64,000 bases of DNA from Acidobacteriota bacterium (GCA_038040505.1 JBBPID010000014.1:8588-72587), one strand, 5' to 3'; positions 49,681 to 56,164 are shown, numbered from the stretch's first letter. Program-made: numbers and translations. The notes: generated by a model from the sequence alone, not told the origin.

Positions 49681-50052
49681 CCCTTCTGATTCCGTGTCCC
49701 ACAGTTTGCTGACGATCCACCATCGCTCCCCATGCTTTAGTAAATGGAAGTAATCAATCACCGCCTCCTCGTGTGTTTCGCGAACTTTTGCCGACGCTAC
49801 TCGGCCGGTGATCTCTAACGACAGAGTTTCGCAGTCGAAAGCCTCTCCAGTTGTGACAGGCGCGGGATTTGAGTTGACCCATTCATACAATCCCTCGATG
49901 GGTGCCGCAATCATCTCATCGCCGAGGTAACCGCAGAGTACCGCTTGCTGATGAAAGCCTTGTCTCAGTACTTCAACGTTGCCCGTTCTCATTCCTTCAA
50001 TGTAGTAGTTTATCGCTTCGCGAATGCCATTCTCGTCAGCTGAACGGTTCAT
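49672..50052 (-). CDS. NTF2/SnoaL-like fold protein
   Basis: 126 aa, with a pattern typical of small NTF2-like (lumazine-binding/SnoaL-like) proteins. The start overlaps the 3' end of the giant kinase gene by 17 nt. Confidence 0.65.
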   Translation of the reverse strand: MNRSADENGIREAINYYIEGMRTGNVEVLRQGFHQQAVLCGYLGDEMIAAPIEGLYEWVNSNPAPVTTGEAFDCETLSLEITGRVASAKVRETHEEAVIDYFHLLKHGERWWIVSKLWDTESEGNH

Positions 50053-53000
50053 TTACTTTCTCCTGATCTCGTGAAGGTAGTTTCATTCTCTGCAACAAAT
50101 CTTTGACTCTTGGATCCTTGCCCAAGCTGTTTAAGGAATCCCCCTGGGCAGCGCTGGTAATTTCGTTGTCGAGAAACACCAACTCGCCATTTCTCTCTTC
50201 GAATGCTGTCTCGAGCCACTGAATTGTCTTTTTCAACTCTCCCAGACGGCTGTAGACGCGGGCAAGGCAGATTGCCGGCACATAACTTTGCCGACGCATG
50301 TCGAGCAATTGGTCAAGGATCTTCTCAGCGGTTTCCTGCTTTCCGGCCAGCGCATTAGCAGCACCTAAATCAGCCAACACGATAGGGTGGCCTCCGAGCG
50401 AAACCGCCTTTGTTAGTTGCTCGATGGCTGCTTCATAGTCTCCGTTTCCCAAACAAACCGCACCTTTCAGCCAATAGGCGCCGAAGAAGGCAGGTTCTAT
50501 TTCCGTCATCTTGCGTGCCTGATCAAACGCTTCGTTTGCCAGACCAGCAGAGAAATACGTCCAACCCACATTCATATTAATAAGGAGTGAAAGTGGATCG
50601 ACTTCGAGTGCGCGCCTGGCAAGTGCCATCGCTTCGTCAAAACGATCTACAAAGCCGAGGAACATCGCGTAGTAAGAAAGTGCTTCGGCGTCTTTTGGAT
50701 TCAATAGAATCGCTTGTTTGAATTCCTGCTCAGCTTTCTCCCATTCCCAATCATGAAAAAAGTTGACCATTCCCAGTGACAGATGTGCACCCGCAAGGTT
50801 TCCATCAAGCTCGATTGCTTTGGTAGCGGCGCTCCTAAATGGCCGCACGGTGTCGTCGGCGGGAGACAATCCGAAAAACCAGAGACAGCCGAGGGCCGCA
50901 GCTTTTCCAGCGTACGCCGGAGCATGATCCGGATCTTTCTCGATAACTTTCTCGAAGAACTCGACCGCACGATTCCACCCTTCAGCTGTGTATTTGTAGG
51001 AGTAGTAACGACCTTTTAAGAAAAGTTCATGCACCTCGGCGTCATCCGTGTATCGCTTAACCACGGCTTCTTTCGCATCGCCAAAGAGTTTCAACTTCAA
51101 CGCGTCAACAACCGCAAGAGCAATCTCGTCCTGAACGTCGAAGATGTCTTCGAGGACGCGATCGTATCGCTCTGACCACAGTTGGTATCCGCTAACGGCA
51201 TCGATGAGTTGGGCTGTGATTCTGAGTCGATCACTTGAGCGTCGCAACGTTCCCTCAAGGATACTGGTCACATTGAGTTTCGCGCCAACCGATCGCAGAT
51301 CTTCGTTTCGACCCTTGAACGAAAATGAAGAACTTCGTCCCGCAACTCGTAGTTCCTTTATTTGTGCCAGTGCGTTGAGTATTTCCTCGGTGATCCCGTC
51401 GGCAAAGAACTCCTGCTCGGGATCGGCGGAGAGGTTTTGAAATGGCAACACAGCGATGCTCTTCAACAATGATCCGAATGAATTCGTTGGTGAAGTTTGT
51501 GGACCGAAAAGCGAAGAGGACGATTTGTCATCAGGAATCTCCAGCCCCGCCTTGCGCAAACCGTCGACAAGATTCTCGCGAAGCTCGGGATCAAACCACT
51601 TCTTTAGTTCGTTGTGTATCGTGGTGCAGAAGTCCGGTCGTAGTTTCAGCAAGTCGCGAATGGCTTTAGCGGCGGCGGCATGGTCTCCGAGCTGACCAGC
51701 GGCCGCAGCAATAGCAGAATGCATTCCCCAGTGGCCTGGCAAATTCGTTTTGAGGATCAGGGTCATTGCGCCGTCGTAATCGCGTTGTCGATACGCATGA
51801 AAGAAGTCGGCATACCAGAACCAACCAGGATGATTCGGATTGATTTGTTTGGCGCGCGAGGCGAGTGCCAGGCCACGTTCCCAATCGCCTACATAGGTGA
51901 GTAACTCACCCATGAAAGCGAGTGAGTTTGCGTCCATCGGATTGAGTGCAACTGCTCGTTCTGCTGCGTTACGAAAACTCTGAAAATCTTTTTCGAAGAA
52001 ACGGGCCTGAGCGAGACTGAAGTAAGCCAGGTGATTAGAGGGCCCCGCCTCAACTGCCCGTTGAGCTGCCAATATTCCGGAGGTCAGGGCATCCGACTGC
52101 AGGTTAAATCCTTGTCCGTAGTCCTGAGCAGATAACAAAGCCAACATTGCCCAGGCATCCGCATGAGTCGGTGCCTTCTCCACAGCTAATTCCAGGCACG
52201 TTCGCGCTGAAGCGAGTTCTTCGGCAGTGACGCGATCGAAGTAACGGAAACTACGCAGTACAGCTTCGTAAGGACTTAACTCATCCGGATTCCTGCTGCA
52301 TACAACTTCGCTCATGCTTCGAGGAAGTACGCCATTTACGTCGGCTATGGTCGAGACGATCCTCGGTACGAGATCATCTTGTAAGGCGAATACGTCCTCT
52401 GCGCGGAATTGACGATCGTATGTCTCGGCCCACAGATGAGCCCCGTTGCTTGCGTCTATGAGTTGTACTGATATGCGCAACGACATGCCAGCAACACGTA
52501 GACTTCCTTCCATCACATAACGTGCACCAAGAGCCTTACCCACAGCGCGGACGTCATCCGTTTCGTTCGCGTATCGCGGGGTCGAACTGCGCGAGATCAC
52601 TCGCAGATAAGAAAAGCGGGATAGTCCAGTCACGATCTCTTCGGACAGTCCTTCAGCAAGCGTTGCAACTTCGGTATTTGAGCCAGTGAACTTGAACGGA
52701 AGCACCGCGACCCAGAATCCTTCATCCGTTCGAGTTTCGCTCGATACAAAGGATCGGGCTGAGGAAGTTGAAGCCGCCTCTTCATCACTAATTTCCAGTC
52801 CCGCCTTGCGCAGCCCGTCCATCATTTCCTCGGTGAGTTCGGCGTCTAACCACTTGCTGTACTCCTCACGCGCTATCACGCCGAAGTCCGGCACCAGCGC
52901 CTGCAACTTCCGCAGAGCCGCGTGCGCCCGCTCCTGTTCGCCGAGCTGCGCATAAACCGCCGCAAGTGCCGTGTGCATAAAAAAGTAGCCGGGCATATTG

Positions 53001-56000: not shown

Positions 56001-56164
56001 CGTTCAGAATCTTCAGTGAATTCAGCTGGAAGAAGTTTTAGTGCGACCTTGCGGCCGAGCCGCGAGTCTTCCGCCAACCACACCTCTCCCATGCCGCCCT
56101 CGCCAATCTTGGAAACGATGCGGTAATGCGACAGATTGGAGCCGGCTGGCAGTTCTCTATTCAT
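50036..56164 (-). CDS. Ser/Thr protein kinase fused to four tandem TolB-N-like/TPR modules (2042 aa)
   Basis: Hanks kinase motifs GEGGMGEVW, VALKLL, HRDIKPDNIM, DFGLA and YMSPEQ. Modules start at aa 305, 730, 1148 and 1568. No hydrophobic TM segment seen. Confidence 0.9.
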   Translation of the reverse strand: MNRELPAGSNLSHYRIVSKIGEGGMGEVWLAEDSRLGRKVALKLLPAEFTEDSERVRRFTQEAKAASALNHPNIISVYDIGECDTGRFIVMEFVAGRTLRSVIAKDNSLETLFTLGAQMARALSAAHAAGITHRDIKPDNIMVRDDGYVKMLDFGLARLLPTTASDPEAMTLAQQTTPGTVMGTLAYMSPEQASGKTAGSASDVFALGIVLYELATGSHPFKSETMIGYLHAITSQVPPPMTSLKSHLPAALNDLILRMLDKNANGRPTASEVVQAMQEIEKYGSSNTLPLRVVAEKPKATRADEGFWVAVLPFKARDADTAVAALADGLSEGIVTGLSRFRYLSVVASASAASLKGETGDERALGAKLGAHYVLEGSIRKGGSGIRVSAQLVDTQTGAQLWAETYNRDLETSSIFAVQDDVAARIVATVADSYGVLVHSMREAIRQKNDADLTTAEWQFQYFAYREQITPSNHAALKSRLERAAKSDNQPSDLWACLAQVYLDEYAFGFPGDDGTSLDRALVAARRAVEWDRANQFAMVALAQTHFFRQDLAAFGPAAERAMALNPLNTDALGILGLEIVHTGQFERGTGIVRHAMELNPNHAGWMHFAPLWNHFHKGEYEQALECANRVDVPGLFWPYLVMASACGHLGRHIEAAAAVRDLLTLDPEFAAHARTNVGAWHFASGLMDPILEGLRKAGLEISDQNEAAAPATDRARSATADSGVARAQEGLWVAVMPFKYGGANADFTVLAEGISEDVITGLSRFSYLRVITHSPTVRYATDSGDVREIGKALGARYVMVGSLRQAGPKLRLAVQLIDATTGAHLWAENYERSFDPDSIFELQDDLVPRIVSTVADQYGALVHSMSESLRGRSAGQYSAHEAVLRSFGYLERVTAEEHAEVRAILEAAVADAPGHSDCQAMLSLIYRQEHADGFNPRPDSLGRAHDAAQRSVAAAPTNPLAHYALATVLFFQKDFRAFRPAAERALALNTMDSSTTAFLGVLIAYSGDWEYGLGLVERAIHLNPHHAGWYHFPAFQYAYHRQDYRGALEIALKINMPGYFFMHTALAAVYAQLGEQERAHAALRKLQALVPDFGVIAREEYSKWLDAELTEEMMDGLRKAGLEISDEEAASTSSARSFVSSETRTDEGFWVAVLPFKFTGSNTEVATLAEGLSEEIVTGLSRFSYLRVISRSSTPRYANETDDVRAVGKALGARYVMEGSLRVAGMSLRISVQLIDASNGAHLWAETYDRQFRAEDVFALQDDLVPRIVSTIADVNGVLPRSMSEVVCSRNPDELSPYEAVLRSFRYFDRVTAEELASARTCLELAVEKAPTHADAWAMLALLSAQDYGQGFNLQSDALTSGILAAQRAVEAGPSNHLAYFSLAQARFFEKDFQSFRNAAERAVALNPMDANSLAFMGELLTYVGDWERGLALASRAKQINPNHPGWFWYADFFHAYRQRDYDGAMTLILKTNLPGHWGMHSAIAAAAGQLGDHAAAAKAIRDLLKLRPDFCTTIHNELKKWFDPELRENLVDGLRKAGLEIPDDKSSSSLFGPQTSPTNSFGSLLKSIAVLPFQNLSADPEQEFFADGITEEILNALAQIKELRVAGRSSSFSFKGRNEDLRSVGAKLNVTSILEGTLRRSSDRLRITAQLIDAVSGYQLWSERYDRVLEDIFDVQDEIALAVVDALKLKLFGDAKEAVVKRYTDDAEVHELFLKGRYYSYKYTAEGWNRAVEFFEKVIEKDPDHAPAYAGKAAALGCLWFFGLSPADDTVRPFRSAATKAIELDGNLAGAHLSLGMVNFFHDWEWEKAEQEFKQAILLNPKDAEALSYYAMFLGFVDRFDEAMALARRALEVDPLSLLINMNVGWTYFSAGLANEAFDQARKMTEIEPAFFGAYWLKGAVCLGNGDYEAAIEQLTKAVSLGGHPIVLADLGAANALAGKQETAEKILDQLLDMRRQSYVPAICLARVYSRLGELKKTIQWLETAFEERNGELVFLDNEITSAAQGDSLNSLGKDPRVKDLLQRMKLPSRDQEKVNEPFS

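Follow-up and report, generated by a model that had tools for sequence, protein, structure and literature searches.

The gene described here encodes a genuine bacterial Ser/Thr kinase in which a Hanks-type catalytic domain is followed by four tandem sensor-like modules. It lies in the window, i.e. the whole stretch of 64 000 nucleotides of Acidobacteriota DNA that was analysed and to which all positions refer, and a database search identified its product, at 100% identity, as NCBI entry MEK6334751.1, 'MAG: protein kinase [Acidobacteriota bacterium]'. The giant kinase is an undescribed arrangement of known parts, and the multi-module proteins to which it belongs form a large, unstudied soil-bacterial signalling family with 2 to 7 modules.

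The kinase gene and its modules

As the initial annotation had proposed, a single ORF, with its frame open throughout, encodes 2042 aa including a complete Hanks kinase. Its features are the following:

50036..56164, minus strand: complete gene for the 2042-aa kinase, with an ATG start and its stop codon at 50036-50038
55340..56125, minus strand: Hanks-type Ser/Thr kinase catalytic domain, aa 14-275, from Pfam PF00069 and motifs
55253..55339, minus strand: linker from the kinase to module 1, aa 276-304, ending in ...KATRAD and without hydrophobic segment, from the translation
53978..55252, minus strand: module 1 (M1), aa 305-729, of the 'EGFWVAVLPFK' class and the kinase-proximal first-module clade, GC3 0.715
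52724..53977, minus strand: module 2 (M2), aa 730-1147, internal type, GC3 0.699
51464..52723, minus strand: module 3 (M3), aa 1148-1567, internal type, GC3 0.519
50039..51463, minus strand: module 4 (M4), aa 1568-2042, of the terminal 'SIAVLPFxN' class, from BLAST, the module tree and profiles

The Pfam Pkinase profile (PF00069) matches aa 14-275 over positions 1-259 of 263, with an E-value of 2.4e-50 and 171.8 bits for a cutoff of 31.7. None of the expected motifs is missing: GEGGMGEV begins at aa 21, VALK at 40, HRDIKPDN at 133, DFG at 153 and SPE at 189, and the HRD motif is kept in every top database match that retains the kinase N-terminus. From these intact motifs, the kinase head is predicted to be catalytically competent.

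The four modules, of about 420 aa each, start at aa 305, 730, 1148 and 1568, exactly as first read; the module HMM that places them was itself built on those boundaries, and the same period of about 420 aa recurs in 120 homologues. By BLAST, M2 and M3 are 54.5% identical at the protein level, M1 and M2 42.9%, M1 and M3 41.6%, and M4 shares 25-29% with the other three, all at E <= 1e-32. Over the first 141 residues, the 92 identities counted by hand between M2 and M3 were reproduced to the residue, and the GLRKAGLEI(S/P)D ends ascribed to modules 1-3 can be seen in the translation. At the DNA level, the modules are 62-64% identical and their longest common exact run is 18 nt; together with the 25-55% protein identity, this bears out the view that they are diverged duplications and not fresh repeats. 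The motifs GFWVAVLPF, LWAE and QDDLVPRIV of the alpha/beta domain are near-invariant, and this domain is better conserved than the TPR part (entropy of 1.05 versus 1.68 bits), as would suit a core that stays constant and binding surfaces that vary.

A Kyte-Doolittle hydropathy scan, the one method used for this purpose, revealed no TM helix over the whole length of the giant protein, in agreement with the initial annotation, which saw no hydrophobic segment there: the maximum 19-residue mean is 1.21, whereas the TM helices of two neighbouring proteins, of 582 and 993 aa, reach 2.88 and 3.09. Since there is no TM segment, all four modules are predicted to lie in the cytoplasm.

Predicted fold and known systems

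The AlphaFold2 model of M3 (pLDDT 91, pTM 0.88) is one compact unit of an alpha/beta and a TPR domain, in which three parts may be delimited:

52343-52723, minus strand: alpha/beta domain of M3, aa 1148-1274 (AlphaFold2 model)
51551-52330, minus strand: TPR-like 13-helix domain of M3, aa 1279-1538 (AlphaFold2 model)
51464-51520, minus strand: disordered linker of M3, aa 1549-1567, module residues 402-420 (AlphaFold2 model)

When the whole predicted module was searched with Foldseek, the best natural match over both subdomains was the periplasmic sensor of CadC (3LY7, 3LY8, 3LY9 and 3LYA; E-values from 7e-7 to 9e-6 over 307-326 columns), but with a low TM score of 0.33-0.43. The isolated alpha/beta domain matches PelC, the TolB N-domain, GNA1162, FlgT, LpoB, CadC and CsgG (E from 1.7e-7 to 1e-4), with TM scores of 0.55-0.66 for the best of them (PelC 0.59 at E 1.7e-7, TolB up to 0.66, CadC 0.57-0.61); at the level of fold, and for a predicted model, it is thus TolB-N/PelC-like. 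Profile searches are fainter. Summed over the whole protein, the Pfam scores lie above the cutoffs for FlgO (41.7 versus 22.6) and LpoB (33.8 versus 22.3), but no single stretch is significant alone for these or for FlgT_M, another of the alpha/beta-fold profiles tested. TIGR02800 (TolB) gives 75 for a cutoff of 343, and a PDB profile search was marginal (PelC, E 0.047). Full membership was found neither for the CadC model NF007540 (49 bits versus 400, with a weak match of M4 at E 4e-13) nor for the HilA/EilA model NF009037 (121 bits versus 589), but what NCBIfam matches there are to CadC, HilA/EilA and TolB, all below cutoff, agree with the structural ones. For the helical part, the scores of several Pfam TPR families exceed the cutoff, chiefly in M4, with the best stretches at aa 1807-1959; Foldseek also matches TPR proteins, and the M1-3-type profile matches consensus TPR proteins at E 3e-57. 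Each module is predicted to comprise a TolB-N/PelC-like alpha/beta domain and a TPR domain, with predicted disordered linkers joining one module to the next.

E. coli CadC is a ToxR-like sensor of pH and cadaverine. Its periplasmic sensor combines an alpha/beta sandwich and TPR (PMC9214523), and in CadC this unit forms the signal-input part of a one-component regulator. CadC has a single, periplasmic copy that follows a TM helix and is coupled to a winged-helix DNA-binding output, whereas the giant protein has four modules, predicted to be cytoplasmic, and a kinase output; the helical domain of its modules is also longer than that of CadC and clearly TPR-like by sequence. Neither hydropathy nor Pfam revealed the CadC-type topology (periplasmic sensor, single TM helix, winged-helix output) in the giant protein. 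Salmonella HilA/EilA-type regulators similarly differ from it by their single module and their output domain. To our knowledge, every solved homologue of the TolB-N/PelC fold is periplasmic or outer-membrane-associated; the solved TolB-N, PelC, LpoB, FlgO-FlgT, GNA1162 and CsgG members are envelope proteins, whereas the domain studied here is fused to TPRs and predicted to be cytoplasmic.

The best characterised functional analogue is PknG, which shares with the giant protein the lack of a TM helix and a C-terminal TPR region behind a Hanks kinase. In mycobacteria, PknG further contains a rubredoxin domain and a docking segment at its N-terminus. Searches with Pfam and among the neighbouring genes did not find the PknG-specific rubredoxin, the N-terminal FHA-docking segment or a glnX/glnH/odhI neighbourhood, and the giant protein is not a PknG member. 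In Mycobacterium and Corynebacterium, the C-terminal TPR of PknG is needed for function and was proposed to be a scaffold coupling the GlnH/GlnX signal to substrate selection (PMC8546545). This TPR domain is single and comes without a TolB-N-like alpha/beta domain; no specific homology to the giant protein showed up outside the kinase and generic TPR.

Family, module exchange and neighbouring genes

The initial annotation implied that multi-module kinases are rare and named their being a common, already described family as grounds for refutation; in sequence databases they are indeed common: all of the best 120 database matches (120/120) have 3-7 modules, and 304 relatives were found in GTDB species-representative genomes of Acidobacteriota and Verrucomicrobiota. 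Relatives of 2033-2038 aa from independent assemblies cover 100% of the query at 59-75% identity, and genes with 3-7 modules sit on Mb-scale contigs or, for one with seven (L076), on a complete chromosome of 5.36 Mb. The module family as a whole amounts to about 30,600 clusters (50% identity, E <= 1e-30). Its database annotation is generic ('protein kinase', 'TolB-like protein/PilF'); the literature searched gave no description of tandem module arrays and no characterised kinase of this layout, as the initial annotation had maintained. Singly or in arrays of 2-7, modules follow Hanks kinases, class III cyclases, TIR-like domains and SARP- or OmpR-type winged-helix domains; because the same arrays occur behind several types of head, they look like a portable input cassette.

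Nor is there support for the idea that a cytoplasmic module is unusual. In rhizobia, TM-less class III adenylate cyclases and winged-helix regulators that carry one such module directly after the output domain are abundant on plasmids (582 records; e.g. R. etli CIAT 652 ACE93470.1 and R. phaseoli WP_064819965.1); their module is full-length and covers 93-100% of M3 at 32-35% identity. These proteins differ from the giant kinase by their single module and their output. In S. meliloti the module is putative in the CyaF cyclases; CyaF2, one of CyaF1-F7, is described as 'of unknown function' (PMC5498481).

The modules are ordered along homologous proteins: the first is mostly M1-like, the middle ones M2/M3-like and the last mostly M4-like. 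In a module tree obtained by neighbour-joining, without support values, the M1 clade also takes in the first modules of proteins with a cyclase head, and M4 groups with the post-TM modules of the 582-aa neighbour and of two homologues (P0045 and P0048); a terminal-class module behind a TM helix is also found in P0060. Relatives at the syntenic locus, upstream of a Lumazine_bd_2 gene, differ in the number of modules (3, 4 or 5) and possess one of two kinase heads, with an M4 that is 91-94% identical. M4 remains 88-94% conserved where the internal modules of relatives differ, several close relatives lack M2 or have another module in its place, and the best match to it elsewhere reaches only 72% identity. 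Close relatives swap, gain and lose modules, and the kinase head is exchanged too.

Three neighbouring genes are relevant here:

49672..50052, minus strand: gene for a 126-aa Lumazine_bd_2 protein (PF12893), downstream of the kinase gene, whose 3' end its start overlaps by 17 nt
47888..49636, minus strand: 582-aa paralogue, in which a Cys-rich N-terminus (CPQC...FC) is followed by one TM helix (aa ~93-111) and a single module of the terminal class
56984..59965, minus strand: 993-aa membrane Hanks kinase, in which a TM helix (aa ~366-384) separates the kinase domain from a longer alpha/beta and TPR region of a distant type

The Lumazine_bd_2 gene directly follows the kinase ORF in three relatives as well (L003, L007 and L022, ~92% identity), with the ORF end within a few nucleotides of the match. 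Its product is possibly a co-transcribed partner in this narrow clade only; outside this Pyrinomonadaceae/Blastocatellia clade, no conserved operon partner was found. Both larger neighbours had been regarded as paralogues with one module after a TM helix. This holds for the 582-aa protein: its module is 35% identical to M4 (BLAST, E 7e-88), the HilA/EilA model aligns along the whole of it (121-547 of 553), and Pfam detects no catalytic output domain. It does not hold for the 993-aa kinase, whose sensor part is not closely paralogous: the post-TM region shows 21-24% identity in BLAST, resembles TIGR04510 (E 2e-74, below the cutoff of that model) and gives no match with the alpha/beta-domain HMM. 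This region fits neither module class of the giant protein and is of a much more distant type. The other neighbours are ordinary metabolic genes, among them a glyoxalase and hydrolases (Pfam).

Possible function and alternative explanations

We favour, with restrained confidence, a soluble kinase equipped with a multivalent input and docking array that is exchanged as a portable cassette. The C-terminal 1,740 residues would be four independently folded regulatory modules on disordered linkers, each a rigid pair in which the alpha/beta domain packs on the TPR domain, on the plan of the CadC sensor. A ligand or partner protein of its own may bind to each module, whose occupancy would set the position, the substrates or the activity of the kinase; the single TPR domain of soluble PknG offers a model for such coupling of input to substrate. 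As a cassette, conserved M1-type and M4-type modules would flank variable internal ones, which may be exchanged, gained and lost through recombination among paralogues. By analogy, then, the protein would be a soluble multi-input or scaffold kinase whose modules bind ligands or partners and regulate it.

Another possibility, to which we give a distinctly smaller chance, is that the protein is a self-assembly scaffold: the alpha/beta domains would oligomerize, or the four modules stack, into a platform or condensate that concentrates the kinase, without distinct sensing by each module. PelC, which is a dodecamer, CsgG and FlgT, all among the closest matches of the alpha/beta fold, form rings; since the solved homologues are envelope proteins and several of them ring-forming, a structural or oligomerizing role is equally compatible with the fold, and within every module conservation is highest in the alpha/beta domain. 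But the module subtypes are distinct and ordered by position, and each is conserved from species to species, which points to roles that are not equivalent. Versions with one module are abundant and are joined to many output domains, as input domains would be, and the linkers are predicted to be disordered.

That the turnover of internal modules and kinase heads among close relatives at one locus reflects an arms race, with variable TPR modules recognizing phage proteins like the arms of STAND/Avs proteins and the kinase acting as effector, seems improbable to us. TIR-like heads do occur on the same arrays, and the kinase domain scores well against the defence-kinase models PD-T4-6 and mad6 (PADLOC), but these matches cover the generic kinase domain only (aa ~7-300) and the modules match nothing. 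Beyond that domain there was no match to the anti-phage kinases PD-T4-6, MADS mad6 or BREX PglW, nor were their partner genes present in the neighbourhood, which is not a defence island. Pfam and NCBIfam models found no NTPase/STAND domain, including the central NB-ARC/AAA+ NTPase of STAND/NLR-like proteins (AfsR, MalT, PknK, Avs), and the same modules are also borne by cyclases and transcription factors, which are typical outputs in housekeeping signalling.

Finally, an artefact of assembly or annotation in a short-read MAG (modules expanded or collapsed through their repeats, or separate genes fused) might be suspected from the metagenomic origin of the contig, the four related 1.25-kb units and a GC3 of 0.70-0.72 versus 0.52-0.53 in the two halves of the gene, but it is very improbable given an uninterrupted frame over 6.1 kb, the full-length relatives in independent assemblies and on long contigs or a complete chromosome, GC3 values that follow module type in other assemblies too, and a module identity so low (no common exact run above 18 nt, far below assembler k-mers) as to make repeat-driven misassembly implausible.

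A bolder version of the portable-cassette reading, which we put forward tentatively and consider rather unlikely, is that these proteins represent a new class of combinatorial cytoplasmic signal integrators, in which constant first and terminal modules surround a fast-exchanged set of CadC-like ones behind interchangeable kinase, cyclase, TIR or DNA-binding heads. If this were true, the input repertoire of one protein could be re-programmed on short evolutionary timescales, in the manner of immune-receptor or polymorphic-toxin cassettes.

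The giant kinase and the fold of its modules

The 6.1-kb kinase ORF described in the initial annotation is real: ORF calling and translation gave a single, unbroken frame with an ATG start, and Pfam placed a kinase domain at residues 14-275 of its product (E 2.4e-50), with every kinase motif then quoted at its place.

50036-56164, minus strand: Hanks Ser/Thr kinase, 2042 codons; GEGGMGEV at residue 21, VALK at 40, HRDIKPDN at 133, DFG at 153, SPE at 189; modules M1 to M4 from residues 305, 730, 1148 and 1568

BLAST alignments between the modules, which span nearly their full length and all have E <= 1e-32, gave protein identities of 54.5% for M2-M3, 42.9% for M1-M2 and 41.6% for M1-M3, and of 25-29% for M4 against the other three; when M2 and M3 were recounted over their first 141 residues, we obtained exactly the 92 identities once counted by hand. 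The absence of a hydrophobic segment was also borne out, as judged by a hydropathy scan rather than a dedicated predictor, the contrast with the two neighbouring paralogues being large: the peak 19-residue Kyte-Doolittle mean is 1.21, versus 2.88 and 3.09 for the neighbours' TM helices. A hidden TM helix or export was ruled out by the same scan of the protein and 120 homologues, of which only three have a TM helix, each time directly ahead of the last module (P0045, P0048 and P0060). Three related loci in other genomes (L042, L066 and L079) likewise encode a true TM helix just before the last module only; no trace of one was seen at this place in the window protein or its close relatives (linker hydropathy 0.11). 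A helix so placed implies the order kinase, three or four cytoplasmic modules, TM helix and one external module, so that in such proteins a signal sensed outside would either have to cross some 1,700 residues of cytoplasmic modules or fail to get through.

Searched by sequence, the PDB gave TPR matches only for the full module and marginal ones, PelC and FlgO, for its alpha/beta domain, and a comparison of folds was therefore needed. The AlphaFold2 model of M3, built from 24 diverse modules, is confident (pLDDT 91, pTM 0.88) and consists of an alpha/beta domain (residues 1-127), a 13-helix domain (132-391) and a disordered tail (402-420). The high pTM of this two-domain chain suggests that both domains form one rigid unit, and the Ser/Pro/Ala-rich disordered linkers suggest a beads-on-a-string arrangement. 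Foldseek matched the whole model to designed and natural TPR proteins; the natural match across both subdomains was the periplasmic sensor of E. coli CadC (3LY7-3LYA; E 7e-7 to 9e-6 over 307-326 columns, with modest TM-scores of 0.33-0.43). Modelled by itself (pLDDT 87.7), the alpha/beta domain matched PelC (E 1.7e-7), the N-terminal domain of TolB (TM up to 0.66) and the N-subdomain of CadC (TM 0.57-0.61), as well as GNA1162, FlgT, LpoB and CsgG. Support from sequence is weak, consisting of summed Pfam matches to FlgO, LpoB and FlgT_M and of NCBIfam matches to the N-terminal part of TolB, to CadC and to HilA/EilA, all of which stay below cutoff. The alpha/beta core is more conserved than the TPR part (entropy 1.05 vs 1.68 bits). 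Since the literature describes the CadC sensor as an alpha/beta sandwich with a helical TPR domain behind it (PMC9214523), the earlier label 'sensor-like module' was apt: the module, as modelled, appears to share the two-domain build of the CadC sensor, yet by sequence it lies outside the curated CadC/HilA families.

Distribution of the modules and surrounding genes

The rarity implied by the initial annotation did not hold. A whole-protein search gave 4066 matches at E <= 1e-10, the best 120 of which are all multi-module proteins, with 3 (19 proteins), 4 (47), 5 (41), 6 (9) or 7 modules (4), some fragments being included in these counts. When each GTDB species was represented by a single genome, relatives were encoded by 304 stretches; these come from Blastocatellia/Pyrinomonadaceae (the closest, at 77%), Thermoanaerobaculia, Terriglobia, Holophagae and Verrucomicrobiota, the Verrucomicrobiota loci matching mostly without the kinase part. 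Among 1.84 billion representatives, a module profile found 30,601 clusters (50% identity) at E <= 1e-30. In the best 150 representatives the modules are preceded by Hanks kinases, by class III cyclases (often in the layout cyclase, TM helix, two modules), or by TIR-like or winged-helix heads, the last two followed by a single module or by arrays of up to five; SARP/BTAD-type winged-helix heads carry up to 5 modules and an OmpR/CadC-type head carries 4.

Homologous proteins with other heads (TIR-like and winged-helix types read by eye from N-terminal sequence motifs, without a profile search)
Class III cyclase in place of the kinase, both Verrucomicrobiota-type: P0020, P0058
TIR-like: P0131, P0184, P0204, P0209, P0232, P0238
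SARP-type winged helix-turn-helix: P0144, P0189, P0256, P0257
OmpR-type winged helix-turn-helix: P0164

Database names are generic, e.g. 'protein kinase', 'TolB-like protein/Tfp pilus assembly protein PilF' or 'adenylate cyclase'; a contig look-up with the exact sequence of the window protein retrieved no entry. In cultured rhizobia, 582 plasmid records hold a full-length module at 32-35% identity, in proteins that are typically TM-less and named 'adenylate/guanylate cyclase domain-containing protein' or 'winged helix-turn-helix domain-containing protein'. Given these proteins and the wide occurrence of arrays, the window gene stands alone neither in the cytoplasmic placing of its modules nor in their tandem order; it is an ordinary member of a large family and no unique oddity. 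That one module type turns up behind many output domains with no relation to one another is a textbook mark of domains that serve as input, be it sensory or regulatory.

Signalling genes abound in the window, which has two histidine kinases besides the three kinase/sensor paralogues; an Rfam scan of its 64 kb gave zero matches.

Genes around the giant kinase
12267-15461: CarboxypepD_reg and OMP_b-brl_4 outer-membrane barrel protein
22679-26113: FtsX-like permease
37787-39955, plus strand: PAS-GAF-HisKA-HATPase-receiver hybrid histidine kinase
47888-49636, minus strand: 582-aa paralogue
49672-50052, minus strand: Lumazine_bd_2 protein (PF12893), 126 aa, its first 17 nt shared with the 3' end of the kinase gene
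56984-59965, minus strand: 993-aa membrane Hanks kinase
61129-62460, minus strand: HAMP histidine kinase

A Lumazine_bd_2 gene of about 92% identity also lies directly 3' of the kinase ORF in three related loci (L003:7118-7480, L007:12301-12663 and L022:24082-24444), whose kinases differ in module number. From this arrangement its product may be a translationally coupled partner of the kinase; the arrangement is not conserved across the wider family. A conserved operon partner was ruled out when the window neighbours were compared by tblastn with 79 related loci, synteny extending to a few close relatives only.

Both neighbouring paralogues had been credited with one such module behind a TM helix, which stands for the 582-aa protein (35% identity to M4, E 7e-88) and fails for the 993-aa kinase, whose post-TM region is missed by the alpha/beta HMM. 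In the former, a Cys-rich N-terminus resembling a zinc ribbon (CPQC...FC) is combined with a single TM helix and a single module of the terminal class, and no output, catalytic or DNA-binding, could be recognised; this module is spanned in full by the NCBIfam model of HilA/EilA (model residues 121-547 of 553, E 9.5e-20, below cutoff), and at locus L004 an 80%-identical orthologue adjoins a multi-module kinase. The extracytoplasmic part of the 993-aa kinase (residues 368-934) matches TIGR04510, 'putative peptide modification system cyclase' (E 1.8e-74, 251.7 bits vs a cutoff of 400); by its sequence, this predicted sensor is a third, distant alpha/beta+TPR class, unlike the modules of the giant protein.

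Positional order and turnover of modules

A neighbour-joining tree, drawn without support values, separates two deep module classes, 'EGFWVAVLPFK' (M1-M3) and 'SIAVLPFxN' (M4). M4 falls together with the module behind the TM helix of the 582-aa neighbour and with those that end P0045 and P0048. Within the first class, first modules form a clade of their own, to which those of proteins with a cyclase head also belong; this suggests that they act as adaptors next to the head. Position is conserved: 62 of 120 first modules are M1-like, 282 of 290 middle ones M2/M3-like and 70 of 120 last ones M4-like.

Close relatives resemble the window protein in the kinase head (86-94%), M1 (80-90%) and M4 (88-94%), and differ in the middle. 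P0004 reads kinase, M1, the window's M3 (89%), another module (61%) and M4, while P0054 and P0035 have M1, M3 and M4 and lack M2, whose best match elsewhere is at most 72%. Loci can be compared directly when anchored by the Lumazine_bd_2 gene directly after the kinase ORF.

Kinase genes at syntenic loci (in brackets, % identity to the window parts; kinA and kinB, two kinase-head types; X, another module)
Window, 4 modules: kinA-M1-M2-M3-M4
L022, 3 modules: kinA(86)-M1(77)-M2(71)-M4(91)
L003, 5 modules: kinB(37)-M1(88)-M2(70)-M3(86)-X(62)-M4(94)
L007, 3 modules: kinB(41)-X(59)-M3(81)-M4(91)

Even the kinase head is swapped, two types occupying the same syntenic locus. The GC3 of the window gene is 0.595 in the kinase part, 0.715 in M1, 0.699 in M2, 0.519 in M3 and 0.533 in M4, with other window genes at 0.61-0.68, and it tracks module type across assemblies (0.69-0.71 for M1-type and 0.52-0.55 for M4-type modules in L003, L007, L022, L001 and L004). 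This pattern suggests a mosaic of modules of differing origin joined by recombination. Such turnover and mosaic make-up of the locus were the most unexpected outcome of our analysis. Pairs of multi-module kinase genes occur on the same contig in L022 (starts 9974 and 19171), L054 (1700 and 5166) and also L045, and genes lying side by side in this way would be substrates for the inter-paralogue recombination to which the mosaic patterns point.

Possible role of the arrays and their significance

What may be taken as established is an intact soluble kinase followed by four alpha/beta+TPR units, predicted to be CadC-like, rigid and joined by flexible linkers; the array is a portable cassette, shared by several output types and ordered by position. 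We consider it somewhat more likely than not, from the analysis as a whole, that the modules bind ligands or partners and that the array regulates the kinase: each module would bind a specific ligand or partner protein, and the array would then set the localisation, substrate choice or activity of the kinase. The best characterised analogue is PknG, likewise a soluble Hanks kinase with a C-terminal TPR domain, which is required in vivo and through which, it has been proposed, the GlnH/GlnX signal is linked to the recruitment of substrates (PMC8546545).

Alternatively, the array could be a scaffold for self-assembly, as several homologues of the alpha/beta fold whose structures are solved form rings; this seems to us unlikely. 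An immune-type pattern-recognition kinase, an idea that draws on module turnover between relatives and on the existence of TIR-headed ones, is distinctly improbable given the lack of a defence context and PADLOC matches confined to the kinase domain, which also led us to reject a defence system; a STAND/NLR architecture was rejected on the absence of an NTPase domain in Pfam and NCBIfam searches. Finally, it is very unlikely, almost to the point of being negligible, that an assembly artefact explains the four-module gene, because its modules are 62-64% identical in DNA with a longest common exact run of 18 nt, far below any assembler k-mer, an identical protein is on record (NCBI MEK6334751.1, from a 77.6-kb MAG contig), relatives of 2033-2038 aa in independent assemblies give 100% query coverage at 59-75% identity, and genes with 3-7 modules are found on contigs of Mb scale and, in L076 (7 modules), on a complete chromosome of 5.36 Mb.

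None of the parts is new: the Hanks kinase, the TolB-N-like fold, the TPRs and the sensor plan of CadC are all known. Bacterial kinases linked to TPRs have, as a general group, been in catalogues for a long time, and a domain-architecture survey of prokaryotic Ser/Thr kinases reportedly mentions TPR repeatedly. Our full-text literature search found no description of tandem-module kinase arrays. Three features appear to be undescribed: that 2-7 whole sensor modules are strung together within a single cytoplasmic protein, that the arrays follow a positional grammar, and that relatives exchange modules fast. The family-level pattern is a higher-value lead than the window copy.

In soils, Acidobacteriota rank among the most abundant bacteria, and how they signal has, to our knowledge, hardly been studied; CadC, the prototype of the sensor module, is structurally understood. 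We know of the TolB-N/PelC/LpoB/CsgG fold only from envelope proteins, and the module family brings it into the cytoplasm at large scale, which raises the question of what it recognises there. In this family a single kinase bears a number of sensor-module copies that differ from one another, a concrete case that can be put to the test. Should every module bind a cue or partner of its own, the proteins would integrate multiple inputs within one polypeptide, and the swaps of modules among close relatives would amount to a natural experiment in input rewiring.
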